Assembly: GCA_965225855.1 (NCBI GenBank) | Contig: CBDDCK010000005.1 | Coordinates: 1,969,074 to 2,033,073 of the forward strand | Source of the DNA: Spirochaetia bacterium | GTDB lineage: Bacteria; Spirochaetota; Spirochaetia; SP-2023 | Direction: 5' to 3' | Length of the DNA: 64,000 nt | Shown here: positions 4,137 through 60,480 of the stretch, piece after piece | How the letters are laid out: the number at the start of each line of letters is the position of its first letter | Numbering within the stretch: the stretch's first letter is position 1 | Program-made: the position numbers and the translations under genes | The notes under the pieces: generated by a model | What the model was told of the DNA's origin: nothing | The model's database searches: none | What the model saw: only the letters and a program-made list of their open reading frames with translations

Positions 4137-4690
4137 CAGAGAATTTTTCTATATATATCTGGATAATAAAAACAATTTGTTTGGCATCTGTACCATCATT
4201 GTATCGCCTAGAAAATAAGCCTTGTCTTAGCTTTGTCTTCTGGTTTGAATATTTGCAGCATTTGGGCTCATGTATGGCATTTATTTTGTCCTCTGTAAGC
4301 TAACGATGAGTTACTTTAGTAAATACTTCTAGGCGTTTCGTTTCTTCTTTAGCTTTCTTGGGATAGCTCTAATTTAGTCTGCTCACTTATATCGTCTCCA
4401 TAGCAGATAAATAATTAAAAAGCAACAATAGCCCCCCACCCAATAACTGCCCCAGCCCCACCCAACACCCCAAAGCAACAAACCCGATCAACACTGTATG
4501 GCCAAAGTTGTTTGCGCAAAGCGCTTTCGGTATATATCCAGAAGAGCCGCAAGGTAAAGGCGAAAGGGCTTCAGATAAAAAACCCTAAAACATAGCCAAA
4601 CGATTATTAATGATAGGCTGGTAAAAGAAATTTTAGCTAAGGCTAAAGCAGAACAATACCGATAAATAAATACCCCAGCCCCCTCTAACC

Positions 4691-4808
4691 ATAGAATTAC
4701 CTCGCACCTATATAATAGAATCGACCTAATTCTATCAATAGATTTACCTCGCACCTATTGATAGAATTGACCTAAATCTATCAATAGAATTACCTCCCAC
4801 CTATTAAT
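4691..4808. repeat. 46-bp-period tandem array (3 A + 2 B units)
   Basis: ATAGAATTACCTCSCACCTAT alternates with TGATAGAATTGACCTAAATCTATCA-like units. Confidence 0.95.
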
Positions 4809-5169
4809 ACCCTAGTCTTTAATGAAATTTTCTACATCGGCACATAATCCACGACCTATACAACAATCATCGGAAATCGTTGCCCAAATTCTGAACGCCC
4901 CTGAAAGAATAATATCCTGTTTTCATTTTCATTAAATGTTTCACCTTTTGGAGATTGCCCCATAGTGTAATCGAAGTGTAATCGAAGTGTAATCAAGTAT
5001 TTTATTCAATTCTACACTTTCCCACCCCAAAGGCCAAACAAAGGCCCTTAAGCCTTTTGATTTCAACACCCACAAGCCTTTTGATTGGCATGGATTTTTA
5101 ACTACCTTACAACACTAAGGACCTAACAAAAAAAGCACAAAAAAACTTACAAAAAGCCTTATATAGGCC

Positions 5170-5195
5170 TTGACGCAACACCCCCCTAGCAAAAT
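5170..5195 (+). promoter_or_regulatory. putative sigma70-like promoter with poly-C spacer
   Basis: TTGACG-caaca-C6-tag-CAAAAT; conserved upstream of all four lipoprotein genes (C7 in the other three). Confidence 0.4.
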
Positions 5196-5258
5196 GGGGC
5201 ACTATGCACTAGCCCGTATGGGTTGGTTAATCTTTATCCATTTTTGGAGGTATTGCTT

Positions 5259-7019: not shown

Positions 7020-7046
7020 ATTGGTAAGTAGGGTTTCTTTTAACCT

Positions 7047-7217
7047 CGCTTGCCCAATAGCTCTTAGAGCAGCTAAGTGAAAGCTAGCGGGAGGCCAACC
7101 AAGTAAATGCGGTAAGCAATGCTTGGTTGGCCTGTTGTTGGGCATTAAGAGAGTTTCTTAATGCCCAACAACAGAATTTCTTAATAACTAACAAGAGAAA
7201 CTTTGGCCAAGCCTTGC
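7047..7217 (+). repeat. 3' tail module I with two hairpins (7092-7133, 7132-7174)
   Basis: 7047-7133 shared with 58375-58461 (minus); 19-bp perfect stem at 7132-7174; distal part shared with 44249-44360. Confidence 0.85.
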
Positions 7218-7282
7218 TTGCCTTTTGGGTGGGCACTATGGCTAGCAACTCACTACCAAGCGGGTAGTGGCTTACGATAACG

Positions 7283-7627
7283 GTGATGGAATTAGCCCAG
7301 TTAAATGAGTATTTGGACTTGGCTTTGAATATTGGTATTAATCAAGTAGATAATATTCAGTTGCAAGTTCAAGATCAAGCAAAATACCAGATGCAGGCTC
7401 GCTTAGCGGCAATAGAGGATGCCCAGAAAAAAGCTGAATTGCTAGCAGAGGGCTTTGGCAAAAAGCTAGGGGCAATTTGGCAGGTACGCTATAACAACCA
7501 TTCAGTCAGCCAGCCTCTACAACGGGGTAAAGCGATGATGTTGAATTGACCAGCGCAGATCAATAGCTATCAAGATACAACTTTAACCATTTGCGACCAA
7601 GTTGATGTGATATATAGGCTTGACTAA
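7283..7627 (+). pseudogene. SIMPL/YggE-like oxidative stress protein fragment
   Basis: ARLAAIEDAQKKAELLAEGFGKKLG motif; in-frame TGA at 7547 followed by homologous tail YQDTTLTICDQVDVIYRLD; N-terminal half absent. Confidence 0.75.
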
Positions 7628-10338: not shown

Positions 10339-10355
10339 TTTGTTTATGTAATTTT

Positions 10356-34422: not shown

Positions 34423-34427
34423 AGCTT

Positions 34428-35861: not shown

Positions 35862-35911
35862 TGTGGGGCGAATACTAGCATAAAGGCAGACGTTGTGCTA
35901 TATATTTGGTT

Positions 35912-36718: not shown

Positions 36719-36795
36719 AGTCTGGAAGTGAATGCAAATCCGCTTTTTCTTGGATTGTGAATTACCAAAAAATCATTATAGATTGGTTTTTTATT

Positions 36796-37323: not shown

Positions 37324-37328
37324 TTCAT

Positions 37329-38042
37329 TTATTAATGATAGGCTGGTAAAAGAAATTTTAGCTAAGGCTAAAGCAGAACAATACCGATAAATAAATACCC
37401 CAGCCCCCTCTAACCATAGAATTACCTCCCACCTATTTAATAGAATCGACCCAAATCTATTAATAGAATTACCTCCCACCTATTGATAGAATTGACCCAA
37501 ATCTATCAATAGAATTACCTCGCACCTATTGATAGAATTGACCTAAATCTATCCATAGATTTACCTCCCACCTATTGATACCCTAGTCTTTAATGAAATT
37601 TTCTACATCGGCACATAATCCAAGACCTATACAACAATCATCGGCAATCGTTGGCCAAATTCTGAACGCCCCTGAAAGAATAATATCCCGTTTTGATTTT
37701 CATTAAATGTTTCACCTTTTGGAGATTGCCCCATAGTGTAATTAAGGTGTAATCAAGTATTTTATTCAATTCTACACTTTGCCACCCCCCAAAGGCCAAA
37801 CAAAGGCCAAACAAAGGCCAACACCCTTAAGCCTTTTGATTGGCATGGATTTTGAACCACCTTACAACACTAACACACAACACTAAGACACAAAAAAAGT
37901 GCCCAAAACATAAAAAAAGCACAAAAAAACTTGTAAAAAGCTTGTATAGGCCTTGACGCAACACCCCCCCTAGCAAAATGGGGCACTGTACACTAGCCCG
38001 TATGGGTTGGCGAATCTTTATCCATTTTTGGAGGTATTGCTT
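37329..38042 (+). repeat. conserved leader, copy 2 (46-bp array 37416-37580, 4 A + 3 B units)
   Basis: Begins 5 bp after trmL stop; colinear with 4604-5258. Confidence 0.95.
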
Positions 38043-39743: not shown

Positions 39744-39748
39744 ATTTA

Positions 39749-39835
39749 AAGTAGGGTTTGGTTGTTGCAACGCTTGCATTGGCAATTGCAACCTTGGTAA
39801 GTTTTTTAGCAAGGTTGCTTTTGCCAATTATAGCC
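39749..39835 (+). repeat. 3' tail module II hairpin
   Basis: Shared with 49600-49689 and partly 44345-44384; stem GCAACCTTG/CAAGGTTGC. Confidence 0.85.
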
Positions 39836-39848
39836 TTGGTAAATACGG

Positions 39849-40117
39849 GAAGCCAATATAGCCAAAGGCTGGAACAACCAAGCTATGTTTGAGCCCGTGC
39901 ATGGTTCTGCACCTCGCCTGATACAAGAAGGCCGCCTGCCTTATGTTGACCCTCGTTCAATGCTACAAGCAGTTAGTTTAATGCTAAGCCATATTGGGTA
40001 CAATCAGAAAGCCGTTACATAAACACCGCAATACAAACGGCAAGCGCGCACTTCCCAATAACTGGTTTTGCAAATGGTGCCGCAACCCAAGATTTTATGG
40101 CTAAATTAATTAGCTAG
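39849..40117 (+). pseudogene. isocitrate/isopropylmalate dehydrogenase C-terminal fragment
   Basis: ANI...AMFEPVHGSAPRLIQEGR..YVDP.SML...MLSHIG, then stop/frameshift; N-terminal part missing. Confidence 0.82.
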
Positions 40118-40191
40118 ATTCAGTAAAATCGGCAAAATAATTTCTCAATAATCTTGACTTTATCGTGAACAAACTTTATAAGCTTGCGCTT

Positions 40192-40210
40192 GATATTGAT
40201 AATAGTTTTT
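40192..40210 (+). promoter_or_regulatory. putative Fur-box
   Basis: GATATTGATAATAGTTTTT matches 14/19 positions of GATAATGATAATCATTATC, just upstream of an iron ABC operon. Confidence 0.5.
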
Positions 40211-40248
40211 ATCGAATTTTAACTTATTTTTTATAAAGGATTATTTCT

Positions 40249-41202: not shown

Positions 41203-41236
41203 TTTCGATAAAATCTCTAATCAAGAGATATATCCA

Positions 41237-42235
41237 ATGAGTATTTATACAAAAATAATATGTCTCTTTGTCGTCCTGCTCTTCGGAGCAGGGGCGTCCC
41301 TTATTTTATATCCTATTGGTGATATTACTTTCGATACCGTATATTCGGCCCTCACGACTCCCATTGACGATGTGGCCGAAATCACGTTTTTGAATATTCG
41401 TATTCCCCGCACATTAACGGCCATTCTGTTAGGGGTGAATTTATCGTTGGCGGGTTTGGTTGTACAAGCTCTAAGCCGAAACCCTATCGCCTCGCCGGGA
41501 GTATTAGGTATTAGCCAAAGTGCGGGTTTATTTGTTGCCCTAGCAGCGATTATCCCGGAATATTTGCCTATACCGTTAAATATTTTGGCATTTATCGGTG
41601 GGCTTATTGGCGGTGGTTTGACGTTTGTTGTTGCCGGCGGTTTGAATAAACGTATCACTCCCGAGCGTATGATTTTAGCAGGCCTGGCTACCGGGGCAAT
41701 CACTATTGCGGTGATGCGCTTTTCCTTCACCATTGACGATGACGTTGCGAAATCTGTAATTAAATGGTTGATCGGCAATGTCAAAGATGTCCGTTGGCAA
41801 GAGGTAAATAATTTAATTATTTGGGCATTTGTAGGTATTATCATTTGTTTGGCTTTCAGTAATGTTTTGAATATTCTGGCTATCGGCACGGAAACAGCAA
41901 AAGGGCTGGGGGTTAATGTGGTGTTTTATGGTGTGATTTTATGGGCAGTAGCAACATTTTTAACTGCCGTATCGGTTGCAGCCGTTGGTCCGATATTGTT
42001 TTTAGGTTTGATGATTCCCCATTTAGCGCGTTTAATATTTGGGCATAACCACAAAATTTTAGCCATCGCCTGTCCATTGATGGGGGCAACATTGATGGTA
42101 CTTGCCGATGCGCTCAGCCGTTACTTATTAAAGGGTATATATGGCACGGAAACGCCTATTGGTGTGGTAATCTCATTTGTTGGCGGAATTTATTTTCTAT
42201 TCCTGATCAAAAGGGAAGATAGTTATGGAAAATAG
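41237..42235 (+). CDS. fecC: FecCD-family iron ABC permease
   Basis: RIPRTL, Q.LSRNPIASP, A.GLG, PH.AR. Confidence 0.8.
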   Translation: MSIYTKIICLFVVLLFGAGASLILYPIGDITFDTVYSALTTPIDDVAEITFLNIRIPRTLTAILLGVNLSLAGLVVQALSRNPIASPGVLGISQSAGLFVALAAIIPEYLPIPLNILAFIGGLIGGGLTFVVAGGLNKRITPERMILAGLATGAITIAVMRFSFTIDDDVAKSVIKWLIGNVKDVRWQEVNNLIIWAFVGIIICLAFSNVLNILAIGTETAKGLGVNVVFYGVILWAVATFLTAVSVAAVGPILFLGLMIPHLARLIFGHNHKILAIACPLMGATLMVLADALSRYLLKGIYGTETPIGVVISFVGGIYFLFLIKREDSYGK

Positions 42236-43244
42236 AACCACGCCCCTGCATACTAGTCGAAAATTTAACAGCATCTGTATTGTATTGCTGGTTATGGGTT
42301 TGGCAGTGTCTTTGTTTTCCATTGCTATGGGCGCAACTCCCATTGCCCTAGATGTGTTGATCAATACGATTTTTGGCTTAGAAGGTGAAACCAAAGATTT
42401 TATTATTTATAAATATCGTATGCCGAGGGTGGCATTAATTTGGCTGGTAGGTTTGGCATTAGGGGTTGCTGGAGTGGTTATTCAGCATACCTTAAACAAT
42501 GCACTCGCCAGCCCAAAAATTATTGGCATTAACAGTGGAGCGGCTTTTTTCACGTTGTTAGTAGCTTTTGCATTCCCTCAAATTCCCGTTAGCTATATTC
42601 CGCTAATAGCGAGTATTGGCGGTATTAGCGCGGGAACTTTGACCTATACTATGTCATGGTCTGGGGGAATTCACGTAATGCGGTTTGCCATGATTGGTAT
42701 TGCTATTGGCTACACCTTTGATTCTGCCGTTGATTTTATTTTATTCCACGGAGTGCATATCCTAAGCCCATCGCTAGTATGGCTAGCGGGGTCGTTTTGG
42801 GGGCGTACCTGGGCACACGTGAAAGCTATGGTACCGGTAATTGTCCTATTCGTTCCGTTAATTTACGCTCTATCGTACCGATTAGAAGTGATTCGATTGG
42901 GCGACAGTATAGCTACCGGGGTGGGGATTTCGGTAGAGAAAATACGATTTATTTTATTGCTGTCTGCAACTATTTTAGTTAGTACCGCAGTTGGGGTTGC
43001 CGGTGTATTGGGTTTTGTGGCTCTGATTACGCCCCATATGGCAGCAGCAATGGTCGGTGGTATCTCAAGACGCACGGGAATTGTTGCGGGGTTACTTTCT
43101 ATCAATCTAATCTTATTGGCCGATTTGACGGGGCGGATTATTGCCCCGCCCATCGAAGTAGCGGCCGGGGTCATCATTGCCTTGTTTGGTTCGCCATATT
43201 TCATTTATTTATTGTCCAGGTATAAAGGTAATAAATATGCTTAA
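42225..43244 (+). CDS. fecD: FecCD-family iron ABC permease
   Basis: YRMPR, NALASP..IGINSGA, WLAGSFWGRTW, G.PYF. Confidence 0.8.
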   Translation: MENRTTPLHTSRKFNSICIVLLVMGLAVSLFSIAMGATPIALDVLINTIFGLEGETKDFIIYKYRMPRVALIWLVGLALGVAGVVIQHTLNNALASPKIIGINSGAAFFTLLVAFAFPQIPVSYIPLIASIGGISAGTLTYTMSWSGGIHVMRFAMIGIAIGYTFDSAVDFILFHGVHILSPSLVWLAGSFWGRTWAHVKAMVPVIVLFVPLIYALSYRLEVIRLGDSIATGVGISVEKIRFILLLSATILVSTAVGVAGVLGFVALITPHMAAAMVGGISRRTGIVAGLLSINLILLADLTGRIIAPPIEVAAGVIIALFGSPYFIYLLSRYKGNKYA

Positions 43245-44001
43245 TATTCAAAATTTATGTGCCGGGTATGAAAAAACTATCATCATTGAAGATATTCATA
43301 TCACGATAGAACCAAATACATTTACCGCTATTGTGGGGGCAAACGGCTGTGGTAAATCTACATTGTTTAAGGCATTGTCCAGTGGGGCAAAAATGTTTCA
43401 TGGGGCGGTAACGATTGATGGTATTGATAAGTCTAGTCTTAGAATGAATGATATAGCCAAACGTATGTCTATTTTGCCGCAGCACCCTATATCGCCCGAA
43501 GGCATTACGGTTGAAACATTGGTTAGTTATGGCCGTACGCCCTACCAGAACTTGTTGGGTATGAAAACCAAAAATGATCACCATATTATCGAGCAAGCAC
43601 TAGAGGCAACGGATTTATTAAGTATGCGTCATAATTTGGTGGCCAACTTATCGGGTGGGCAACGCCAGCGGGCCTGGATTGCCATGATTTTAGCACAGGA
43701 CACAGACCTAATTCTGTTAGACGAACCCACTAACCACTTGGATTTGCGCTATCAACATGATATTTTGAAACTGTTAAAAGCCCTGAATAAAAAAAATAAG
43801 ACGATCGTAATCATTATGCATGATTTGAACCAAGCAGCTCAATATGCAGATATAATCTATATGATGCACGATGGGCGCATTTACCAGTCTGGCAGCCCCA
43901 ACGAAACAATGAATAGCGCGGCTATCGAATATGTTTTTGGCGTGAAAAATAAAGTAATCGAAAATCCAGAAACTCACAAACGGCTATGTGTGGTTTTGTA
44001 A
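43237..44001 (+). CDS. fecE: iron ABC transporter ATP-binding protein
   Basis: GANGCGKST, LSGGQRQRAWIAM, LLDEPT, HDLNQA. Confidence 0.85.
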   Translation: MLNIQNLCAGYEKTIIIEDIHITIEPNTFTAIVGANGCGKSTLFKALSSGAKMFHGAVTIDGIDKSSLRMNDIAKRMSILPQHPISPEGITVETLVSYGRTPYQNLLGMKTKNDHHIIEQALEATDLLSMRHNLVANLSGGQRQRAWIAMILAQDTDLILLDEPTNHLDLRYQHDILKLLKALNKKNKTIVIIMHDLNQAAQYADIIYMMHDGRIYQSGSPNETMNSAAIEYVFGVKNKVIENPETHKRLCVVL

Positions 44002-44248
44002 CATTTAGCTACAGCCTAGATGTTTTGTGCCGTTATAACCAAGAAAAAAGCTCCTAAACAACTCTTTCTTCTCTTCTTTGGCTTTAGCCTTTTCTTGCTC
44101 GGTGGCTAGTTTATTGCCTTCTTCATCATAACTTTGTCCACTGGGCTTGTTCGTTATTCTCACTGTAACAAAAAACCTACAAACTTTTTTTAGTAATAGC
44201 TTTGAACAAAACCCTTACAATAATTATTGCCAGAACGTTGCCATAAAA

Positions 44249-44430
44249 ATTAAGAGAGTTTCTTAATGCCCAACAAGAGAGTTTCTTAATGCCTAATAAG
44301 AGAATTTCTTAATACCCAACAAGAATTTTTTGTAACAAGATAAACTTTGGCCAAGCCTTGGTAAGTTTTTTATCAATTATAGCCATTCTGGAAAGTAGAA
44401 AAAATCGAGTTATCACGTTCTGCATCATTG
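44249..44430 (+). repeat. orphan cassette tail: 3x 23-bp repeat plus module II variant
   Basis: AAGAGAGTTTCTTAATGCCCAAC-like units at 44252, 44275, 44298; left part matches 7144-7217, right part matches 49643-49757. Confidence 0.88.
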
Positions 44431-44673
44431 TTTTTTACTCTATCTGCTTTGTATTGTTTTGGCTTTCTCTTTTTTGTTAGGGAAGCATATTAACTTTCAA
44501 TAATTTATTACGCAATTCTATAAAATGCAGAAAATGGAACATAATAAATTTTGGCAATGATGGGAATGTTATTAAAGATTCTCAAGATAGTTTTTACGGT
44601 GTAGCAATCGCCCAATGTCGCTATAATAAGCTTTCTATCAAAACAATAAACATTTTAAATCTTTCAGGTATTT

Positions 44674-46593
44674 ATGGCAAAACAAATAAATCAAAAGCAG
44701 CACGAAAGCCTCAGTGAAGCTTTTGAAAAGATGGATAGAGAAATTGCGGAAGGGGTCCTGCACGATAATCTGCACGCCGATGCAAAACAAGATGCTCAAG
44801 CAAAAAAGAACAAGCCTCTTAGCTTTAACACAACCGCAGATAAGCAGGGGCATTTGCACCATTTTTTACAACAGCTAGCCAAAATCTGCCATTTGCGCGG
44901 CGATATGATCCCCAGAGCGCAAGAAGCTTTAATCCGTAAGTTTCTTTTAAATTATCGCTACCGCCACCATTTACAACAAATGAGTAATGCTCATGCATTG
45001 CGTTCCGAGGAAGCCAAAAATAATGGCGATCCCAAATTATTCTTGCAAGAGAGGCTAGAGGCTTGGCGCAAAATGCCACGCGATTTATCGTTATTGCTAG
45101 ATGTTGCCGAAGCGTATGCCGAGCCACAAAGCTTTTTAGAACAAAAAAATACACGGAGTAGACTTGCAAAAGAAGATAGAGCGAAACCTGAAATAAAATC
45201 AGAAGCTCAAGGAATGAAAACTAGGCTAGGGTTTAGTGAATCAGAGCGTGCTTTGAGTGCTAAAGCTTTGATGCTTAAAGAAAAGCATGCTGCTAAGCAG
45301 GAAAACAAACAAACGCAGGAACAGCGCAAACAACAAGAAAGGATTGCCAGTGAGCTACTGCAATTAAACCCTTGGCAATACCGCCGCCAAGCGATTAAAT
45401 ATTTAAAAAAAGCCACAGAGCTATATATTGGCTTAGAATTAGAACAAGAAAGCAATGAAGAGAAAGCAAGTGCAAACAAACTAAGTGCAAACAAACTAAG
45501 CGAAGAATTAAAGCGTTTGGAACAGTTACAGCAAAATTATCCCAATATTAATTGGGAACGTTATGCTAAGCAAATTAAAATTTTAAAAGGGCAAGCTCGG
45601 TCGCGTTGGCCTTGGGTGCTGCTAGCGTTATTGTTGTTGGCTTTGTTTTCTATTGCCATGATTTACCTTCCGTGGCGCAGTTGGTTGTTCTTTCGATCTG
45701 AAGAAGTAGCTCTGCAGGAGGTTGTGCCTCAATTGAGTGAACAGCGTTTGTTGGAAACTCCGGTACCGGTAGAATGGAAGGTTCCCGCAAAGAGCGATTT
45801 GGATTTTGATAAAGTGATCCAAAAATCACAGCGATTAAAATTGAGCCAGCATTATGCCTATGAAGTTCAGGGCCACATACGAGTCAAGCCTAAAAAGCAC
45901 CCCTCTATAAATGGTGGCAATACAGCGCATTCGCAATTTTTGATTCCGACAGAGCCTTTTGACTTGTTGCTGACTTATGAACATCAGGGCCAAGAATTCA
46001 AAAAACGCATAGAATTTTCTTATGACAATGAAACTGACCCTATCGAAATCGACAGGGCCCCTGTGATGGAAGGGGATACTGTGTTGTTCCGCGAGGTTTT
46101 TCGTTTACCGGGCGGGGCGGTGAATGACGACCGTTTGCGTGCCCAGATAGACAAGGTAGGCAAAGCTCCAAAATACGAGGCCAAAAGTTTAGCAGAAGGT
46201 GGCTTTGCCCAGCCATTGAGCAGCTTCAATATTCAAGGTGAGCCCCAACCCAATATAAAAATGGCTTTCCGCAACCAAGTTGTTCGCAGCGATGGCGAGA
46301 GTATAAGACAAGTAGGCTATGATCTTGAGTTGCAAAACAATAGTAAGTTGCCTTTAGACCAATACCAATTGCGTTTGAATTGGCGGCAAGAAAATAGCAT
46401 CTATACCAAAGAAAATTCCCCTATATTACAGCAAAATAACTATACCATTATTTCTGCTAGCGGTACAAACTTGCCGGGCCGAAGCAGGACAACCCAGCGA
46501 TTGTGGTTAGAAGTTCCAGAAGGTTTAAATTACCCGATAGAACAATTAACGCCTCAAGTGCGTATTATCGAAAATCGCTTTGCCACAGAATAG
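44674..46593 (+). CDS. hypothetical single-pass membrane protein
   Basis: 639 aa; helical N-half, TM segment WPWVLLALLLLALFSIAMIYL, beta-rich C-half. Confidence 0.7.
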   Translation: MAKQINQKQHESLSEAFEKMDREIAEGVLHDNLHADAKQDAQAKKNKPLSFNTTADKQGHLHHFLQQLAKICHLRGDMIPRAQEALIRKFLLNYRYRHHLQQMSNAHALRSEEAKNNGDPKLFLQERLEAWRKMPRDLSLLLDVAEAYAEPQSFLEQKNTRSRLAKEDRAKPEIKSEAQGMKTRLGFSESERALSAKALMLKEKHAAKQENKQTQEQRKQQERIASELLQLNPWQYRRQAIKYLKKATELYIGLELEQESNEEKASANKLSANKLSEELKRLEQLQQNYPNINWERYAKQIKILKGQARSRWPWVLLALLLLALFSIAMIYLPWRSWLFFRSEEVALQEVVPQLSEQRLLETPVPVEWKVPAKSDLDFDKVIQKSQRLKLSQHYAYEVQGHIRVKPKKHPSINGGNTAHSQFLIPTEPFDLLLTYEHQGQEFKKRIEFSYDNETDPIEIDRAPVMEGDTVLFREVFRLPGGAVNDDRLRAQIDKVGKAPKYEAKSLAEGGFAQPLSSFNIQGEPQPNIKMAFRNQVVRSDGESIRQVGYDLELQNNSKLPLDQYQLRLNWRQENSIYTKENSPILQQNNYTIISASGTNLPGRSRTTQRLWLEVPEGLNYPIEQLTPQVRIIENRFATE

Positions 46594-46766
46594 CGAAATA
46601 AGTTCAGTTGCCTTTTTCTAACATTGACGCAGTAGTCGAAAGACAATCTTTGCCTTGCTCCTCTGCAGCAACGGCTTACTTTGATTTGAAGAGGCTATAA
46701 AGATTTTAATGTTCCATCTGCAAGCTGGAACAATACACCACATTCTGTGGGTAATATAAAGTTCGA

Positions 46767-46925
46767 TTACATCAGTTTAATCAAGCTCAAGATACCGATA
46801 ACTAGGCCAATGCCTGTTGCTATAAACCATTGCAACATTAAAAATCTTTTATCCATGTTCTGTTGAATAGCTTTAAAACGCTTGCCGACTTGTTCAAAAC
46901 GTTTATCTATTTGTGTTGCTATCAA
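46767..46925 (-). pseudogene. fragment of DKRFEQ coiled-coil/C-terminal TM protein (Bdr/DUF1640-like)
   Basis: LIATQIDKRFEQVGKRFKAIQQNMDKRFLMLQWFIATGIGLVIGILSLIKLM*; no ATG. Confidence 0.55.
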
Positions 46926-47070
46926 CTTGGTTTGACCAAACCTAGTTGGTTATTTAACACAACAAAAAGTCTCTGTACTTGTAAAAGCAAATGTCAGTTT
47001 AGAGTGAAGATCATCTCCCCCAACCAACACCCCACCCGATGATGATGATCGATCTTCTGGGCCGTCTGGG

Positions 47071-47636
47071 CCACCTATTTAATAGAATCGACCTAATTCT
47101 ATAAATAGAATTACCTCGCACCTATTGATAGAATTGACCTAAATCTATCAATAGATTTACCTCCCACCTATTAATACCCTAGTCTTTAATGAAATTTTCT
47201 ACATCGGCACATAATTCACGACCTATACAACAATCATCGGCAATCGTTGGCCAAATTCTGAACGCCCCTGAAAGAATAATATCCCGTTTTCATTTTCATT
47301 AAATGTTTCACCTTTTGGAGATTGCCCCATAGTGTAATTAAGGTGTAATCAAGTATTTTATTCAATTCTACACTTTGCCACCCCCAAAGGCCAAACAAAG
47401 GCCAAACAAAGGCCAACACCCTTAAGCCTTTTGATTGGCATGGATTTTGAACCACCTTACAACACTAACACACAACACTAACACACAAAAAAAGTGCCAA
47501 AAACATAAAAAACACAAAAAAACTTGTAAAAAGCCATATATAGACCTTGACGCAACACCCCCCCTAGCAAAATGGGGCGCTGTACACTAGCCCGTATGGG
47601 TTGGTTAATCTTTACCCATTTTTGGAGGTATTGCTT
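47071..47636 (+). repeat. conserved leader, copy 3 (array 47071-47175, 5'-truncated)
   Basis: Colinear with copies 1 and 2 from within the first A unit. Confidence 0.95.
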
Positions 47637-49601
47637 ATGTATAAGTTCAAACTACTTTTATTGCCTGTAGCCTGGCTACTGGCCTTTATGGCCTTGGCCT
47701 GCGCCCCACCCGATGACGATGATGCATCTTCTGGGCCGTCTTCTGGGCCGACTATCAATAACGCCATCTACGACTTTGCTACGGCTCTGTTAACCGTACA
47801 AGGTTCTAACTTAAGTCCTACAACTGCGACCCAAGCGCAAATCCAAACTATCAGGGTAGGAAGCCAAACAAATGGTGTAGACTTCAGTTCCTATACTGCA
47901 GATGAGGATGCCACTGGTGTAAATAGTAACGGTCTTGAACAAGGTAAGTACCGTATGAAAAGCGATGGCACAGCGCTTTGGCTGAAACTTACCGAGCAAC
48001 ATAAAGCTGTTCTTGAGGCCAAGGTGGGTAGCGATGGTCTAAAAAAAGGGTTGCTTACTAGCTCTGGTGCTTGGGCGGGTTTAGATACAGCCAAAGACTT
48101 AACCGTTAGGAATATACCCGCAGCCGAACAAGTCGATGATCAATCGCCTAAGCAAACTGAAGACGAACAAGCTGAACAAGTCGAACAAGCTGAAGAAGAG
48201 TCGCCTAAGCAAGCTAAAGACGAACAAGTCGAACAAGCTGAAGAAGAGTCGCCTAAGCAAGCTAAAGTCGAACAAGCTGAACAAGCCAAACAAGCTGAAC
48301 AAACCGAAGAAGTCGAAGATAAGCAGTCTAAGACCGAAACTGAAGATCAGTCGCTTAAGCTACCCGAAGCCGAAGAAACCGAAGAGGAGTCGCGTAAACT
48401 ACCCGAAGCCGAAGAAACCGAAGAGGAGTCGCCTAAGCAACCTAAAGCCGAACAAGCTGAAGAAGTCGAACAAGCCGAAGATCAGTCGCCTAAGCTACCC
48501 GACCCCGCAATTACCCGTGCAACCTACAATGTTAATACAGGCTTCTTAGAGATTACAGGTACTAATTTACCAGCAGCAGTTGCAGACTGGGACTTTAGCA
48601 AATTGACGCTTGTATCCGGTGATGGTAGTAAGAGATTCACATTACCTAAGCACTCAACTTTAGGTAGAAACACAACCATAGGTTCTCAAGCAAGTGCAAC
48701 AAAATTATTTATTGAGTTAAGAGGTAGTGTAAAAGCCAAAGCCAATGCTATACTGGTTAACGATGGTGAAAGTGATGCTAATGGTGCATACAACCTGGAA
48801 GCAGCAGCAGGCTTTGCAGGTGGTAGCGCTGAAGACACAACCAATCCTATTACCGTTAGCGGGTATACAGCCAGCATCACCAGTGCAACCTACGATGCTA
48901 ATACAGGCGAGTTATATATTATTGGTATCAAGTTACCGACATCAATTGCAAGATGGGACTTTAGCAAATTGACACTTGTATCCGGTGATGGTAGTAAGAG
49001 ATACCCATTACCCGAGCACGAAACTGCAGGTGAAAACACAGCCACAGGTTCTCGTGCAGGTAGATACAGCTTAAATATTACTTTAAGCGGTAGTGTAAAA
49101 GCGGAAGCCGATAAGATACTGGTTAACGATGGTGATAGTGATAATAATGGTGCATACAACCTGGAAGCAGCAGCAGGCTTTGCAGGTGGTAGCGCAGAAG
49201 ACCCAACCAACCCGATTACCGTTAGTGGGTATGTAGCCAGCATCACCTTAGTATCATATGTAGTTAATATAGGCCAGTTATCGATTATAGGTAGCAGGTT
49301 ACCGATAGCAGTTGCAGATTGGGACTTTAGCAAATTGACGCTTGTATCCGGTGATGGTAGTAAGAGATTCACATTACCCCGGCACGCAACCGCAGGTGAA
49401 AACAAAGCCACAGGTTCTAATGCAGGTGCAACAGGCTTAGTGATTAATTTAAGAGGTAATGTAAAAGCCAAAGCCGATGCTATACTGTTTAAGGCTGGTA
49501 AAAGTGATAATGCTGGTGCATATAACCTGGAAGCAGCAGCAGGATTTGTATCTGGTAGCGCAGAAGACCTAACCAATGCTATTCAAGTTGTATTCCTTTA
49601 A
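47637..49601 (+). CDS. surface lipoprotein paralog 3 (A-long linker-B-B-B)
   Basis: Same signal peptide and lipobox; three WDFSKLTLVSGDG domains. Confidence 0.9.
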   Translation: MYKFKLLLLPVAWLLAFMALACAPPDDDDASSGPSSGPTINNAIYDFATALLTVQGSNLSPTTATQAQIQTIRVGSQTNGVDFSSYTADEDATGVNSNGLEQGKYRMKSDGTALWLKLTEQHKAVLEAKVGSDGLKKGLLTSSGAWAGLDTAKDLTVRNIPAAEQVDDQSPKQTEDEQAEQVEQAEEESPKQAKDEQVEQAEEESPKQAKVEQAEQAKQAEQTEEVEDKQSKTETEDQSLKLPEAEETEEESRKLPEAEETEEESPKQPKAEQAEEVEQAEDQSPKLPDPAITRATYNVNTGFLEITGTNLPAAVADWDFSKLTLVSGDGSKRFTLPKHSTLGRNTTIGSQASATKLFIELRGSVKAKANAILVNDGESDANGAYNLEAAAGFAGGSAEDTTNPITVSGYTASITSATYDANTGELYIIGIKLPTSIARWDFSKLTLVSGDGSKRYPLPEHETAGENTATGSRAGRYSLNITLSGSVKAEADKILVNDGDSDNNGAYNLEAAAGFAGGSAEDPTNPITVSGYVASITLVSYVVNIGQLSIIGSRLPIAVADWDFSKLTLVSGDGSKRFTLPRHATAGENKATGSNAGATGLVINLRGNVKAKADAILFKAGKSDNAGAYNLEAAAGFVSGSAEDLTNAIQVVFL

Positions 49602-49757
49602 GTAAGGTTTGGTTGTTGCAACGCTTGCATTGGCCTATTGCAGCCTTGGTAAGTTTTTTTATCAAGGCTGCTTTTGCCAAGTTATAGCCATTCTGGAAAG
49701 TAGAAGAGTCGAGTTATCACGTCCGATGGCACAAAGTTATCACGTCCTGCATCATTG
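49600..49757 (+). repeat. 3' tail module II plus GTTATCACGTCC doublet
   Basis: Matches 39749-39835 and 44355-44430; GTTATCACGTCC at 49713 and 49736. Confidence 0.85.
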
Positions 49758-49951
49758 AGGAACTGGTTGGGATTGGGTTATCTACTATTCACTATACATT
49801 GTTGTTGAATAAAAAATCCCTTTCTCCTAACCTTAGCTTGTAAGCCTGGGTTTTGTATATTTGCACTAAACAGCAAAGCAGGCTATAATGCATTTTAACA
49901 CATTGACATATAACTGCCATGTGGTATAATAGCTGCATAAAAGGAACGCAT

Positions 49952-51463
49952 ATGCATTATTTCAGCACCCGTGATTGTTCGAGTCTCCACTCTAACTCCC
50001 ATTGCAGCCTTAAGTATAAAACCTTCTCGCAAATTGTTTTGGAAGGGCTAGCCCCAGATGGTGGTCTATACATACCCCAAAGCATACCCCAATTGGATAG
50101 CGTAGCCCTAGCGCAATGGTCCACCAAAAGTTATGTAGAGCTTACGGTAGAGCTACTGCGCCTCTACGCCCCAGAGCTAGAACAACAAACCGCTTGTAGC
50201 TATAACCAGCTAGCCCAAGCCAGCAGCCAAAACTTCCAATGTAAAGAAGTTACGCCCCTAAAGCAATTAAAGGCCCAGTCAAGCTATCCCATCTATATCG
50301 CAGAGCTATTCCACGGCCCCACTTATGCATTTAAAGACATAGCCCTGCAATTCCTCGGGCAAATCTTCCAAAGACTATTACAGCAGCAAGGTCGCACCAT
50401 ACACATACTGGGTGCCACCAGTGGCGACACAGGCGGTGCTGCCATCTACAGCGTCCACGGCATGGAGAATATTCAACTAACGATTATCCACCCTCACCAA
50501 GCTGTAAGCGAAATCCAACGCAAGCAAATGTGCAGCGTGCTGGATAACAACATCTGCAACATTGCCATCCAAGGCAATTTTGACCAATGCCAAAGCCTAG
50601 TAAAAGAAATCATGCAGCGCAGTAAACAGCAGTCCCAAGGGGGCCAAGAAAAGGGCCAAGCTGGCACTATCCCCCACTTGGGGGCTATCAACTCTATCAA
50701 TTGGGGCCGTATCCTAGCCCAAATGTCTTATTACTTTGCCTTATACTTCCGCATGGTAGGCACAAGGAATGAGATGAGACTTGCGCAGCCCATACGCTTT
50801 ATTGTTCCCTCTGGCAATTTTGGCAACGTGCTTGCTGGCTATTTTGCCAAGCAAATGGGCCTACCCATTCAATTAGTGATTGCTACCAACCGAAACAACA
50901 TCTTGCACCAATGTATTGCCCATAACCAATACCAGCCCGCAGAACATGTGCAACCCAGCCACGCCCCCGCAATGGATATAGTACAACCTTCCAACTTTGA
51001 ACGCTACTTATGGTATCTATTCAGCGGTGATACGGCCCAGCTCCATAATTTTATGATAGGGGCCAAGCAAGGCAACCTACAGCAGCTAAGCCCCCAACAG
51101 TACAGCCAAATTTGCCAAGATTTTTCTTCAGCCTATGCCAGCGATAGCGATCTACTGCAAGCCATATTGGATTGTTACACTAACTATCACTACGTACTAG
51201 ACCCACATACTGCTTGCGCTTACCACGCTTGCAGGCAGCTAGAGCAAAATATGCCCAGTGTCTTGCTGGCTACAGCGCACCCCGCCAAATTCCCCGAAGT
51301 ATACCAAGCACTAGAGCAAAAATACCCAAACAATGCAAACGCTCAATTCCATTTCCCCGTACCCAATGGCTTGCAGTTTGGCAATGCTGAAGAACGCTAT
51401 CAAGTATTGGAATGCAATACCGAAGCCTTATTAGCTTATTTAGAACAAAACATCTGGCACTAG
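49952..51463 (+). CDS. thrC: threonine synthase
   Basis: GLAPDGGLY, ELFHGPTYAFKD, ATSGDTG, NSINWGR, PSGNFGN, TAHPAKF. Confidence 0.96.
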   Translation: MHYFSTRDCSSLHSNSHCSLKYKTFSQIVLEGLAPDGGLYIPQSIPQLDSVALAQWSTKSYVELTVELLRLYAPELEQQTACSYNQLAQASSQNFQCKEVTPLKQLKAQSSYPIYIAELFHGPTYAFKDIALQFLGQIFQRLLQQQGRTIHILGATSGDTGGAAIYSVHGMENIQLTIIHPHQAVSEIQRKQMCSVLDNNICNIAIQGNFDQCQSLVKEIMQRSKQQSQGGQEKGQAGTIPHLGAINSINWGRILAQMSYYFALYFRMVGTRNEMRLAQPIRFIVPSGNFGNVLAGYFAKQMGLPIQLVIATNRNNILHQCIAHNQYQPAEHVQPSHAPAMDIVQPSNFERYLWYLFSGDTAQLHNFMIGAKQGNLQQLSPQQYSQICQDFSSAYASDSDLLQAILDCYTNYHYVLDPHTACAYHACRQLEQNMPSVLLATAHPAKFPEVYQALEQKYPNNANAQFHFPVPNGLQFGNAEERYQVLECNTEALLAYLEQNIWH

Positions 51464-51565
51464 GTCCTAATAGTTTGAGTAAAATAATAGGAAAAAAGCA
51501 GTACAAATAGGCTAGGCTAAGCACATGCTTTTAGGCAAAATTCCAACCTTATTGAGGGGGAAATA

Positions 51566-51850
51566 ATGAAAAAATGCCTAGGACTGCTGTTGTTCTTAAT
51601 GCCGTTGAGCATGATGCTCAACGTTCACCAAAGCAAATTATATTTGCAAGCAAAAGCGAAAATCATGGACTTGCAATACAAGCAAAACCAATTGCTGGAA
51701 GAAAACCAGCGCATTATTGCCGAGATTGCACGCAGTAACGCCCCTACGGTGATAGAGCATTTAGCTCGTTCTAGCGGGGCCAACCTAAGGAAAATCCACC
51801 CCGAGAAAGTTTTGCGTATTATTGTGCCAGAAGAAGATATTTCCCCTTAA
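51566..51850 (+). CDS. ftsL: cell division protein FtsL-like
   Basis: Short TM plus coiled coil, precedes murF. Confidence 0.65.
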   Translation: MKKCLGLLLFLMPLSMMLNVHQSKLYLQAKAKIMDLQYKQNQLLEENQRIIAEIARSNAPTVIEHLARSSGANLRKIHPEKVLRIIVPEEDISP

Positions 51851-51875
51851 AATAAAGGGCCAATCATACTAGGTT

Positions 51876-53483
51876 TTGGATAGCTTTATGATTCAAAAGC
51901 AAGCTGTTACAGAGGCGGCTGGCCAGCACCGCTGCCCCCAAATTATACAAGCCCTGCAAGGCGCAGGTTTTGAATTGCATTGCCTGTTGCAAGGGCACCA
52001 ACCGTTGCGCACAGCCGTAGTCGATTCACGAGAAGCAGGGCCAGAAATCTTATTCATCGCCCGCCGTGGCAACCAAACAGATGGTCACAATTACATTGAC
52101 GCCGCATATGAAAATGGCTGCCGCTATTTCTTAGTATCTTACGATTATCTGGCAACTGCCAATGCAGCGAATCGACTACCCTCCGATGCCAGCTTTATAG
52201 GGGTAAAAGGCTCTACCGAACAAGCGTTGTATGCTTGGGCCCGTGCCTACCGCCGCAGTCTAAAACAACTGTATGTGTTAGCCATTAGTGGTAGCTATGG
52301 CAAAACCAGCACAAAAGAATTGTTAGGTTGTGTGCTAGCCCAACGCTACCGTTGTTACATTACTGCAGGCAACCGCAATGCGCCGGTGGGCTGCGCTCTA
52401 ACTATTTTGGGGATTGCCCCCGAGATGGAGCTTGCAGTCCTTGAGCTAGGGATTGATCACCCCGGCGAAATGGATTTACTTTGCAGCCTAGCCCAACCAA
52501 ACGCAGCATTGCTAACCGGTATCGGCTCGGCCCATTTAGAAGGCTTTGGTACCCGCGAAAAGCTGGCCAGCGAAAAAGCTCGAATCTATGCCTATTTGCA
52601 CCAGCCGCCAAACACTAAGCCCAATGCAAAAGCGAACAAAGCCTTGACGCAGGCTTTAGCCCTACTACCAGCAGATGATTATTTTTTGCCGTTACTGCGT
52701 GCAGAAATCAATCGTAATATCTCACCTACAAGCGTCTGTCAAATTATGTATTCTGCCAAACTGGCCCAGCAACAAGGCTACCGTGTAGAAGATAGAGGCT
52801 TACAAGGTTTGCGCTTCCATTTTTGCGGTTCTACAAGAGACTCTCTTGTAGAACCGCAAAAATCCGTAACAAAGTTGAGCTGCGATATACCGATATTGGG
52901 CTTGCACACCCAACAAGTATTTTGGGCAGCTGCCTCTGCTGCCCAAAACTTAGGCCTTAATCCCACCCAAATATTTATAGGTGCGCAGCACTACTGCCCT
53001 CTATTTGGCCGAGGCCAATTGCAACAAGTACAGCTAAAGGATAGTGGTATACCATTCACAATGCTGGAAGACTGTTATAATGCCAGTCCAGAGTCGATGT
53101 ATGCCCTCATTAAAATGCTCCATTCTTGGGAACAACAAGGATTACTACCTCCCTGTGTCTTAGTGCTAGCTGACATGTTGGAGTTGGGCGAGGCCAGCGT
53201 TGCATGTCACCGCAAAATTGCACATCAGCTCTCTTGCTTTTGGCAAAATTCAAAAGTACAGCCTCAAATATTGGTATTATTCTATGGCAAAGAGATGCAA
53301 GTCGCACACTCGGAATTACCACCAATGCCTATGGACTGTATCTATGTGCAAAACCAAGAACAGCTCACAACCACCATGTATCATGCTATAGAACACATTG
53401 CCAACAAAGCCCAACCACTACTGGTAACCAAGGGAGCTAGGGGAATGCATTTAGAAAAAATCGTAGAGAAAATCTTACTTTAG
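51876..53483 (+). CDS. murF: UDP-MurNAc-tripeptide--D-Ala-D-Ala ligase
   Basis: DSR, DGHNYI, GSYGKTSTKE, ELGIDHPGEM, DCYNASPES, DMLELG. Confidence 0.93.
   Translation: MDSFMIQKQAVTEAAGQHRCPQIIQALQGAGFELHCLLQGHQPLRTAVVDSREAGPEILFIARRGNQTDGHNYIDAAYENGCRYFLVSYDYLATANAANRLPSDASFIGVKGSTEQALYAWARAYRRSLKQLYVLAISGSYGKTSTKELLGCVLAQRYRCYITAGNRNAPVGCALTILGIAPEMELAVLELGIDHPGEMDLLCSLAQPNAALLTGIGSAHLEGFGTREKLASEKARIYAYLHQPPNTKPNAKANKALTQALALLPADDYFLPLLRAEINRNISPTSVCQIMYSAKLAQQQGYRVEDRGLQGLRFHFCGSTRDSLVEPQKSVTKLSCDIPILGLHTQQVFWAAASAAQNLGLNPTQIFIGAQHYCPLFGRGQLQQVQLKDSGIPFTMLEDCYNASPESMYALIKMLHSWEQQGLLPPCVLVLADMLELGEASVACHRKIAHQLSCFWQNSKVQPQILVLFYGKEMQVAHSELPPMPMDCIYVQNQEQLTTTMYHAIEHIANKAQPLLVTKGARGMHLEKIVEKILL
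52819..52863. repeat. 45-bp perfect palindrome inside murF
   Basis: ATTTTTGCGGTTCTACAAGAGA-C-TCTCTTGTAGAACCGCAAAAAT. Confidence 0.97.
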
Positions 53484-54666: not shown

Positions 54667-54672
54667 ACACAA

Positions 54673-56914: not shown

Positions 56915-56916
56915 CT

Positions 56917-58224: not shown

Positions 58225-58374
58225 ATGACGATATGCTTAGTGAATATGATCGTAAGCTTGCTCAAAATCTTCTATCTCGGCTAAGGCCTCTGTGGCAAAA
58301 ATAACTTTTTGTATTTTCAATAATAAGTAATGTTGTTTATAGCTTGGTTAGCCACAAATCTAAAAGCTAATAAT

Positions 58375-58461
58375 AGGCCAACCAAGCATTGCTTACCGCA
58401 TTTACTTGGTTGACCGCCCGCTAGCTTTCACTTAGCTGCTATAAGAGCTATTGGGTAAGCG
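58375..58461 (-). repeat. 3' tail module I (copy 4)
   Basis: Reverse complement matches 7047-7133. Confidence 0.88.
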
Positions 58462-58469
58462 CAGTCAAA

Positions 58470-60296
58470 CTAATTACTAACATAAATAATGTTATTGCTT
58501 GTGTCTGCTGGACTACCCATTACAAATCCTGCTGCTGCTTCCAGGTTGTATGCACCATTATTATCACTATCACCAACCTTAACCAGTATAGCCTCGACTT
58601 TGGCTTTTACACTACCGCTTAAAGTAATATATAAGTAGGTTGTACTTGCTTGAGAACCTGTGGCTCTGTTTGCGCCTACAGTTGAGTGCCGTGGTAATGT
58701 GTATTTCTTCTTACCATCACCGGATACAAGCGTCAATTTGCTAAAGTCCCAGTCTGCAACTGCTGTCGGTAACCTGCTACCTTTAATAATTAACTGGCTT
58801 ACAGTTGTTCTGTATAATACGGAGTCGAGCAGGCTTACATACCCACTAACGGTAATCGGGTTGGTTGTGTCTTCAGCGCTACCACCTGCAAAGCCTGCTG
58901 CTGCTTCCAGGTTGTATGCACCATTAGCATCACGAACACCATCGTTAACCAGTATCTTCTCGGCTTCCGCTTTTATACTACCGCTTAAAGTAATATATAA
59001 GTAGGTTGTACCTGCACTAGAACCTGTGGCTGTGTTTTCACCTGCGGTTGCGTGCTGGGGTAATGGGTATCTCTTCTTACCATCACCGGATACAAGCGTC
59101 AATTTGCTAAAGTCCCATCGTGCAACTGCTCTCGGTAACTTGATACCCTGAATCAATAACTCGCCTGTATTAGCATCGTAGTCTACTTTGGTGATGCTGG
59201 CTGTATACCCAATAACGGTAATAGGGTTGGTTGTGTCTTCAGCGCTACCACCTGCAAAGCCTGCTGCTGCTTCCAGGTTGTATGCACCATTAGCATCACG
59301 AACACCATCGTTAACCAGTATCTTCTCGGCTTTGGCTTTTACACTACCCCTTAACTCAATATATAAGCTTGTTGCACTTGCTTCAGAACCTGTGGCTGTG
59401 TTTCTATTTGCAAAACCTATGGCTCTGTTTTCTTGACCTGTTGAGTGCCGGGGTAATGTGTATCTATTAGTACCATCACCGGATACAAGCGTCAATTTGC
59501 TAAAGTCCCAGTCTGCAACTGCTGCTGGTAAATTAGTACCTGTAATCTCTAAGAAGCCTGAAATAACATTGTAGCTTGCACGGGTAATTGCAGCTTTAGG
59601 CGACTGCTCTTCGGTTTCGGTCTTAGACTGCTTATCTTCGACTTCTTCGGTTTGTTCGGCTTCGGGTAGTTCAGGCGACTGCTTATCTTCAGCTTGTTCG
59701 ACTTGTTCGGCTTTAGCTTGCTTAGGCGACTGCTCTTCGACTTCTTCAGCTTGTTCGTCTTCAGTTTGCTTACGCGACTCTTCTTCAGTTTGCTTAGATG
59801 GCTGATTGTCATCGGATACTTTAGACTGCTTATCGGGTACATTACTAACGGTTAAGTCTTTGGCTGTATCTAAACCCGCCCAAGCACCAGAGCTAACGCT
59901 AAGCAAGCCTTTTTTTAGACCATTGCTACCCACCTTGGCCTCAAGAGCAGCTTTATGTTCATCTTTAAGTTTCAGCCAAAGCGCTGTGCCATCGCTTTTC
60001 ATACGGTACTTACCTTTTGCCAGATTGTTACTATTTGGCCCAGTGGGTTTGGCATCTGCAATATAGGAACTTAAGGCTAAGCCAGCTACCGTGATAGTTT
60101 GGATTTGGGCTTCTGTAGGACTTAAGTTAGTGCCTTGTACGGTTAAGATAGCCTTGCCAACATCGTACATGGCGTTCTTGATAGTCGGCCCAGACGGCCC
60201 AGAAGACGGCGCATCGTCATCGGGTGGGGCGCAGGCCAAGGCCATAAAGGCCAGTAGCCAGGCTACTGGCAATAAAAGTAGTTTGAGCTTATACAT
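58470..60296 (-). CDS. surface lipoprotein paralog 4 (A-linker-B-B-B)
   Basis: Same RBS, signal peptide and lipobox; three B domains. Confidence 0.9.
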   Translation of the reverse strand: MYKLKLLLLPVAWLLAFMALACAPPDDDAPSSGPSGPTIKNAMYDVGKAILTVQGTNLSPTEAQIQTITVAGLALSSYIADAKPTGPNSNNLAKGKYRMKSDGTALWLKLKDEHKAALEAKVGSNGLKKGLLSVSSGAWAGLDTAKDLTVSNVPDKQSKVSDDNQPSKQTEEESRKQTEDEQAEEVEEQSPKQAKAEQVEQAEDKQSPELPEAEQTEEVEDKQSKTETEEQSPKAAITRASYNVISGFLEITGTNLPAAVADWDFSKLTLVSGDGTNRYTLPRHSTGQENRAIGFANRNTATGSEASATSLYIELRGSVKAKAEKILVNDGVRDANGAYNLEAAAGFAGGSAEDTTNPITVIGYTASITKVDYDANTGELLIQGIKLPRAVARWDFSKLTLVSGDGKKRYPLPQHATAGENTATGSSAGTTYLYITLSGSIKAEAEKILVNDGVRDANGAYNLEAAAGFAGGSAEDTTNPITVSGYVSLLDSVLYRTTVSQLIIKGSRLPTAVADWDFSKLTLVSGDGKKKYTLPRHSTVGANRATGSQASTTYLYITLSGSVKAKVEAILVKVGDSDNNGAYNLEAAAGFVMGSPADTSNNIIYVSN

Positions 60297-60480
60297 AAGC
60301 AATACCTCCAACAATGGATAAAGATTAACCAACCCATACGGGCTAGTCTGTAAATCCCCATTTTGCTAGGGGGGGTGTTGCGTCAAGGCCTATACAAGCT
60401 TTTTGTAAGTTTTTTTATGTTTGGGCACTTTTTTTGTGTGTTAGTGTTGTAAGGTGGTTCAAAATCCATGCCAATCAAAA
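60297..60480 (-). repeat. proximal leader, copy 4
   Basis: Matches the last ~180-210 bp of leaders 1-3, then diverges. Confidence 0.9.

Follow-up and report, generated by a model that had tools for sequence, protein, structure and literature searches.

The origin and scatter of large families of variable surface genes are usually inferred without a visible engine. In Xanthomonas, genes for transcription activator-like effectors (TALEs) are described in mobile insertion cassettes (MICs) bounded by TnXax1 (Tn3-family) repeats, which 45% of the TALE genes had (PMC4337579). In the laboratory, mini-Mu(LR) is amplified in the chromosome by the A and B proteins acting in trans, with inversions and deletions as side products (PMC3145075), and B3/Tn552-type phages, Leptospira ones included, are described with TG-CA ends, 6-bp repeats and lengths of 36–39 kb (PMC8705779). 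The vlhA genes of Mycoplasma gallisepticum stand in tandem with a trinucleotide repeat (PMC4534519), and tp0126 of Treponema pallidum has a homopolymer between −35 and −10 (PMC7864442). Here we analyze a 64,000-nucleotide stretch from a Spirochaetia bacterium (the window; positions 1,969,074 to 2,033,073 of contig CBDDCK010000005.1, assembly GCA_965225855.1) that holds four copies of a lipoprotein gene with a repeat-rich leader and a hairpin tail. Across the genome (G000; 2.71 Mb in five contigs, C1–C5, 94% complete, 0.68% contamination) these copies belong to a large family that probably multiplied as transposase-less mini-transposons with prophage ends, moved in trans and reshuffled by homologous recombination. 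Because engine, ends and scars lie in one genome, this proposal can be tested directly.

An earlier note on the window, made from its letters alone, had taken the cassettes for a four-copy family; the genome-wide count was 109 genes with the standard ribosome-binding site (RBS) and start, which is what we count as a family gene, and, separately, 112 tblastn loci. The 109 genes amount to 216 kb, or 8.0% of the assembly (11.4% with shared flanks), and 105 of them encode at least 440 aa. Nearly all consist of a signal peptide, an A domain, an acidic linker, zero or more further A domains and then B domains (249 A and 248 B). Copies are dispersed, with a median spacing of 17 kb and 57 on the plus and 52 on the minus strand, and they are distinct: the best paralog identity has a median of 76% and exceeds 90% in 2 of 109. 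The older stock of the family may survive in a few longer, divergent genes that have a different promoter, for example at C5:353,655 and C5:571,748.

Aligning the outer limits of the shared DNA revealed sharp termini. Scanning the genome yielded 31 left ends and 32 right ends. They begin with TG and have a 12-bp box at position 9, followed in most cases by another 23 bp further on. A left end lies upstream of 30 of the 109 genes and a right end downstream of 27; both are present at 17 genes and at least one at 40, and the two kinds of end co-occur above chance (odds ratio 9, p 7e-6). The 17 two-ended units are 2.4–3.7 kb long and contain one family gene each and no transposase. Perfect 6-bp direct repeats stand outside the ends of five of these 17 (P 6e-11 under site composition), with repeats of 4, 5, 7 or 8 bp at none, and 52 distinct flanks show the target bias N-Y-T-W-R-N. 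The five scarred copies lie at C5:45577, 800480, 1449578, 1722378 and 1781349. Joining flanks back into empty sites restored no convincing gene.

The cassette ends match those of a 36.1-kb transposable prophage of B3/Mu type at about 1,257,677–1,293,766 of C5, 0.7 Mb from the window. Lengths of prophage end retained in the cassettes are nested (63–682 bp on the left, 43–354 bp on the right), as internal deletions of the phage would leave them. Among the prophage genes are those for terminase, portal, capsid, sheath and repressor. Its DDE transposase gene is open and encodes 586 aa (phrog_310, E 2e-70; rve, E 8e-10), with D144, D238 and E274 as the triad read by eye; a transposition ATPase is encoded as well (phrog_296, E 4e-32). 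The transposase is the sole rve match in G000; the Mu DDE_2 and Mu-transpos_C profiles were silent on controls and carry no information. No 6-bp flanking repeat was seen at the prophage itself, the right terminus of which is as in the cassettes, and two further right-hand prophage pieces lie at contig edges (97–100%). An orthologous prophage (transposase 55%) occurs in G002, one of three congeners compared; both its termini are laid out in the same way, and its flanks, read by eye, do not repeat. In none of the three congeners did we see a spread of such phage ends. We regard it as highly probable that the scarred copies were transposed by the phage machinery. Other routes of mobilization were considered and rejected: G000 has no RVT_1, Y1_Tnp or PDDEXK_2 match that would point to retro-copying or to IS200/605-type or Rpn-type movement, the controls being positive, and its two matches to tyrosine recombinases both have counterparts in congeners, which leaves no dedicated enzyme. 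A candidate second left end in the leaders turned out to be the inner part of long left-end leaders. The congener G001 shows another kind of expansion, with 22 PD-(D/E)XK (Rpn-like) matches, nine of them nearly equal in score, against none in G000.

The suggestion in the earlier note of a non-autonomous mobile unit has thus held up, with phage-type ends, 6-bp duplications and a cognate transposase elsewhere. The leader repeats and hairpin tails, which it saw travelling with the genes, are not the mobile ends: the real ends are phage-derived, and no window copy keeps both. The note had also seen no transposase, and none occurs among the 16 of 73 window open reading frames (ORFs) that were scanned, but transposon ends are present at 44427, 49754 and 61064. 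As in the Xanthomonas MICs, so far as the source describes them, a passenger lies between transposon ends (17 of 109 genes here) without a transposase of its own, the cognate enzyme is encoded elsewhere in the same genome, duplications accompany some copies only (5 of 17), and solo ends, many end-less members and a diversifying modular repeat protein are found. Here, however, the ends are those of a transposable phage, the repeats have 6 bp rather than 5, about 110 copies are dispersed in one chromosome, and the cargo is a predicted lipoprotein gene with its own promoter. The family extends mobile insertion cassettes to transposable-phage ends. With mini-Mu(LR) it shares left and right phage ends around foreign DNA, but the units are natural, have B3-type ends with two boxes 23 bp apart and have recombined later. 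Their number, far above the 5–10 copies given for mini-Mu in that source, is about tenfold that reached in the laboratory, and their amplification can be seen as the counterpart of mini-Mu in nature. The helper resembles B3/Tn552-type prophages in its length, its DDE transposase and ATPase, its head and tail genes, the TG...CA type of termini and the 6-bp repeats of the derived units; in what the source sets out, such phages appear as prophages and engineered minis, not as host-gene cassettes, and the left terminus is altered here. Listings of an open-access library turned up no account of cassettes with phage ends that multiply a host gene family in nature. The ends and transposase form a pair that is also a candidate genetic tool for spirochaetes.

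A second sharp, TG-started right terminus is present on 13–17 tails (for example C5:93018 and 445348) and alone at C5:1452844. No partner end or repeat was found for it, and a similar TG motif occurs twice in G001 (C4:30410 and 609882), not at the ends of the prophages retrieved; it may be the end of a lost second element. Repeats of about 46 bp from type K leaders also occur inside the prophage (C5:1264372-1264473 and 1292605-1292855), near portal and baseplate genes, as well as alone elsewhere.

Recombination tests were run on the paralogs, as proposed in the earlier note. When pairwise distances were compared between the promoter, the first and last A domains and the first and last B domains, the five matrices proved almost uncorrelated (−0.03 to 0.21). 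Incompatibility affects 60–72% of the informative site pairs, and a neighbour-site test of our own making reached its lowest attainable p (0.003) in each of the five segments. Since the segment trees are uncoupled, the copies are recombination mosaics. Leader type is independent of tail type (p 0.32) and of architecture (p 0.36), and tail and architecture are weakly linked (p 0.019). Exact tracts in window copies 1–4 come from 8, 9, 13 and 3 donors, mostly outside the window, and copy 4 and the copy at C1:208190 are identical over 2,193 bp, a tract that takes in the leader. Six relatives found only in ENA are all mosaics of G000 copies, with none above 86% to any one copy; one is identical to a single copy for 290 residues and then switches. 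They may come from other strains and could be chimeric. G000 has recA, and leader and tail modules stand alone at many places in the genome. Uncoupled segments and donor patchworks together bear out the picture of a dispersed, recombining family.

In the window, the four reading frames lie where the earlier note placed them and share a near-identical RBS and signal peptide, and the cysteine is residue 22 in all four. Their coding architectures pair copies 1 and 2 (A-linker-A-B-B) and copies 3 and 4 (A-linker-B-B-B), the 3′ tails pair 1 with 4 (module I) and 2 with 3 (module II), and upstream of the common leader core copy 4 differs in leader type from copies 1–3, a third pairing. The earlier note took the discordance between architectures and tails for recombination between copies. 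The family does recombine, but discordance in four of 109 copies is no proof of exchange among those four, whose nearest donors mostly lie elsewhere in the genome. Its view that leaders are better conserved than the variable C-terminal domains stood for the last 120 leader bases (89–94% against 77–80% for the last B domain among the four, and 90.5% against 79.7% family-wide), but only about 170–200 bases are common to all four leaders. The tails fold better than shuffled sequence (z −7.2, −6.5, −3.0 and −2.7), and Rfam gave no match within the window. Copy 2 does adjoin trmL, its shared leader beginning 5 bases past the trmL stop at 37323; that stop precedes the shared module, which rules out a captured trmL 3′ end inside the leader. 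Among the four, copy 3 alone retains a phage end, a right one (73 bp at 91.8% to the prophage right end), so the transposition of the window copies is inferred from their kin. Elsewhere in the window a right end and a left half stand without a gene, the latter 93% identical to the prophage left end over 682 columns (61075-61753), which indicates that halves become separated.

Cassettes also appear tied to chromosome rearrangement. The copies at C5:1,508,714 (+) and C5:1,387,244 (−) have sister leaders (score 448 of 450, rank 1 of 29), lie in opposite orientation and share a 6-mer crosswise, the footprint to be expected if a unit had transposed replicatively and inverted the 120 kb in between (C5:1387897 to 1508059). 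Such intrachromosomal replicative transposition accompanied by inversion is an established mechanism of Mu. At cassette junctions the third-position GC skew changes more strongly than at matched junctions of genes, both on C5 (p 0.003 and 0.02) and C1 (p 0.0002 and 0.002). Two results count against this link: the skew test was negative on C4 (p 0.93 and 0.66), and the three left/right flank 6-mer matches that join different cassettes (793 pairs) are not above chance by count (1.26 expected, p 0.13). At C5:1590138-1616622, a left end and a right end from two different cassettes bracket 26.5 kb with four family genes and host genes, with a matching 6-mer outside; this is possibly a composite unit moved whole, or chance.

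The A-B-B part of copy 1 was modeled from a 26-row alignment with a mean pLDDT of 84.7 as three beta-rich domains. A structure search returned immunoglobulin (Ig)-type folds throughout, and the B repeat recurs many times in proteins of 1,000–5,500 aa. Of 16 such giant proteins scanned, four contain DUF4347, two RTX repeats, one Big_9 and cadherin-like domains, two NHL and six nothing; the ESM Atlas gave unnamed clusters plus one SWM_repeat lead. B domains are about twice as variable as A domains (entropy 1.22 against 0.68 bits) and have the higher pN/pS (1.37 against 0.85, from simple counting over 1,500 random pairs that ignores recombination). The predicted fold and domain neighbours make a surface adhesin or antigen the likely role of the predicted lipoproteins. 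This assignment is weakened by the best fold match, the S-layer protein SbsC, which at Z 7.7 (root-mean-square deviation 2.7, 94 aligned) is below the specificity level of the tool, and by the residues before the cysteine, ALA or AFA where other candidate lipoproteins in this genome more commonly have LFS or LLS. An acidic tether can keep spirochaete lipoproteins below the surface. B domains are also fused to unrelated lipoprotein N-termini (C4:210671-211942 and C5:206266-209247), an arrangement that shows domain capture by other genes.

All 109 genes have the RBS and start, and 108 leaders contain a TTGAC-type box, a C run and a −10-like box, as read from the sequence. Among these 108, the run is C7 in 85, C6 in 20 and C5, C8 and C9 in one each, which gives spacers of 13–17 bp, mostly 15 and 14; the two copies with C8 or C9 are those at C5:1508714 and C5:803129. 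Promoter-like pairs of the host peak at spacer 16 (43), with 22 at 17 and 15 at 15, the last near background. Slippage in the C run might switch promoters, with C8 or C9 giving a spacer of 16 or 17, a proposal to which we give slightly less than even credence. It is countered by a further host peak at spacer 14 (30), by the shortness of the C6 and C7 runs, which could hold sequencing errors, and by the presence of mutS in G000. A 17-base hairpin motif in the 5′ untranslated region (UTR) has 108 matches in the genome, 107 in family leaders and one in the early region of the prophage (17 of 17 identical, E 6e-4), hinting at phage origin or shared control. In that early region (C5:1270690-1270760), the stretch before the shared hairpin resembles, as we take it, a tRNA T-loop, and the two together are perhaps an RNA control element.

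Silent-cassette systems, among which vmp, tprK and p44 are grouped, keep their variants in another way. The earlier note did not recognize the family as vls, vmp or tprK, and rightly so, since each copy comes with a promoter-like sequence, an RBS and a signal peptide. Segmental paralog mosaics and variable outer regions are common to this family and to the vls and pilS/pilE systems as the source describes them (PMC4534519), but there is here no promoter-less archive and no single expression site; segmental recombination was found, promoter-less donors and one expression site were not (108 of 109 genes have the promoter core). The vlhA family described in the same source likewise consists of numerous full-length lipoprotein genes that have individual promoters and a repeat by which expression could be set; the copies here differ in being dispersed, phage-ended and Ig-like, with a switch predicted from sequence. 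A homopolymer between −35 and −10 is shared with tp0126 of the tp0126/tpr promoters (PMC7864442). The family would represent, in a spirochaete, a means of variation that relies on many complete expression sites and not on a silent archive. It was not found in 20 related genomes, including the three congeners, nor in these three by profile search; the B-B region was not found in 400 sampled genomes of the phylum, and a JGI metagenome scan showed no relative.

The course of events that we favor begins with a member of a small older family, with an Ig-like repeat resembling those of giant adhesin-like proteins from other bacteria, which would have come to lie inside a prophage copy; internal deletions would then have left units of end, leader, gene, tail and end, 2.4–3.7 kb long. 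Footprints of the next step are visible as units at many sites, five with a perfect 6-bp duplication, and replicative transposition would have made them, inverting or deleting host DNA as well. Leaders, domains and tails form mosaics with no coupling between them, for which RecA-dependent gene conversion and crossing-over could account, and recombination with deletions would have stripped or separated the ends of 69 of the 109 copies, including window copies 1, 2 and 4. The weakest step, to which we would give a little under an even chance, is that most copies are low or off, C6 or C7 setting a spacer of 14–15 bp. A slip of one or two bases would then switch single copies on, resulting in a variable surface coat or adhesin set with diversifying selection on the outer B domains. 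A stronger version, in which a domesticated phage machine built and still renews the whole variable surface repertoire from one host lipoprotein gene, which natural mini-phage units would have raised to about 110 copies, every one a complete expression site, with single switching by poly-C, a UTR element shared with the phage early operon and copies acting as inversion hinges, seems rather unlikely.

Several observations weigh against the favored account. Neither end is present at 69 of 109 copies, 12 of the 17 two-ended copies have no duplication, and no other end has a 6-mer that pairs with one of the three in the window. One outer flank is common to five of the 30 left ends, which were therefore inherited rather than freshly inserted. 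The most recent copying (2.2–2.5 kb, copy 4 and C1:208190) joins two end-less copies. At the left terminus of the prophage, roughly the outermost 11 bases are unlike the cassette ends and repeat modules lie within it, so any present activity is hypothetical. In short-read contigs from separate studies compared with G000 (X1, which may be the source sample, X4 and X5), no joint skipping a cassette was seen in X4 or X5 among the rows listed, at low and fragmentary cover, for window 33000-52900 and the scarred cassette C5:1722378-1725605. The end-less copies are the main opening for a spread largely without phage, by duplication and gene conversion, with ends acquired late by a transposed subfamily of perhaps 20–40 copies. 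Such a history would fit the uneven distribution of left ends over leader types (6 of 23 type H, 2 of 16 K and 2 of 24 M, one HM leader being counted in both), the five left ends nested within another leader module, the long near-identical tracts that join end-less copies and the leader and tail modules that occur alone. It is nevertheless improbable in our judgment, as it needs a second, unseen route to about 70 new sites in a genome where searches gave neither a reverse transcriptase, Y1 or PD-(D/E)XK transposase match nor any transposase family in multiple copies. Conversion rewrites existing sites and makes no new ones, and the loss of ends is evident from truncated ends and from left and right halves that stand without a gene.

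Two further readings fare worse. The cassettes might be largely selfish by-products of the phage, passengers that rose in number by neutral processes in a small population tied to a host, neither switching nor bringing much benefit. Other decay in the genome (gene relics in leaders, truncated neighbours), the absence of strand bias and an A-domain pN/pS near 1 would all suit this reading, yet 105 of 109 frames are long and open and keep the signal peptide and the order A before B although their flanks are full of deletions, B domains have pN/pS above 1, and the gene-bearing form outnumbers the gene-less halves; we consider it very improbable. That the mosaics arose as chimeras in the assembly, from a smaller family or from a mixture of strains, the refutation foreseen in the earlier note, is hardly credible. 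The assembly does break at family genes and phage copies, and the ENA relatives are possibly chimeric too. However, contigs pile up on the copies in two studies, with a summed depth, which is not copy number, of 700–1700 against 4–8 on most unique DNA in X1 and 230–510 against 1–11 in X4, and this argues against an assembly artefact. X1 contigs match the unique flanks of a scarred cassette without difference and run about 25 bases into both its ends, less than the 31 bases demanded for a bridge, contamination is low at 0.68%, and chimeric joins do not make exact 6-bp repeats.

Table 1 Features of the window (positions count from its first nucleotide).
Feature	Position	Strand	Details
Copy 1 leader, type H	4431..5258	+	C-rich repeats, short tandem repeats, gene relic, family-wide core
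31-codon relic inside type H leaders	4871..4963	−	tblastn to longer relic ORF at C5:1352235
Predicted sigma-70-type promoter, copy 1	5170..5195	+	C6 run 5181-5186 in 14-bp spacer
5′-UTR hairpin motif, copy 1	5208..5224	+	Also once in prophage early region
Copy 1 lipoprotein gene, 586 aa	5259..7019	+	Signal-A-acidic linker-A-B-B
Copy 1 tail, module I and further hairpins	7020..7273	+	No phage end
5′-truncated SIMPL (DUF541) gene adjoining copy 1 tail	7286..7549	+	PF04402 profile positions 94-173
Copy 2 leader, type H	37329..38042	+	Predicted promoter 37953-37979, C7 run 37964-37970
Copy 2 lipoprotein gene, 566 aa	38043..39743	+	Signal-A-linker-A-B-B
Copy 2 tail, module II	39744..39885	+	No phage end
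Broken 3′ duplicate of isocitrate/isopropylmalate dehydrogenase gene	39852..40114	+	PF00180
Gene-less tail with one-box phage right end	44177..44427	+	Terminus 44427
Copy 3 leader, type H	47071..47636	+	Predicted promoter 47547-47573 with C7 run
Copy 3 lipoprotein gene, 654 aa	47637..49601	+	Signal-A-linker-B-B-B
Copy 3 tail, module II, with full two-box phage right end	49602..49754	+	Terminus 49754
Copy 4 tail, module I	58359..58469	−	No phage end
Copy 4 lipoprotein gene, 608 aa	58470..60296	−	Signal-A-linker-B-B-B
Copy 4 leader, type K	60297..61000	−	Predicted promoter 60386-60360, C7 run 60369-60375
Phage left end and leader body, no lipoprotein gene	61064..62130 (right limit approximate)	+	Terminus 61064; points away from copy 4

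The leader of copy 1 is common to at least eight other leaders from 4431 on and matches the copy at C5:1174799 over 786 bp at 99.2%. Its relic we take to resemble a type I restriction specificity subunit, Pfam having given no match. Just before the leader of copy 3, at about 47030-47070, lies a relic of the family's N-terminal coding stretch. Truncated or duplicated host genes adjoin copies 1 and 2: the SIMPL fragment is the only match in G000, where the 5′ part of the gene was not found, and the dehydrogenase duplicate has 83% DNA identity to the whole gene at C5:1832007-1833179. An AIPR-family gene in low-GC DNA (62344-63915) lies beside the gene-less left end, and the closest named relative of the FtsA encoded in the window is that of Candidatus Haliotispira prima (69%), which marks the host as a spirochaete. 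Outside the window, a second multi-copy ORF family has 13 members of 146–275 aa in some cassette tails and in a cluster at C5:1.10-1.11 Mb (for example G000 C5:100452, 233367 and 722566). At C5:663600-670000 and about 900800, ORF-like periodic translations resemble two CRISPR arrays.

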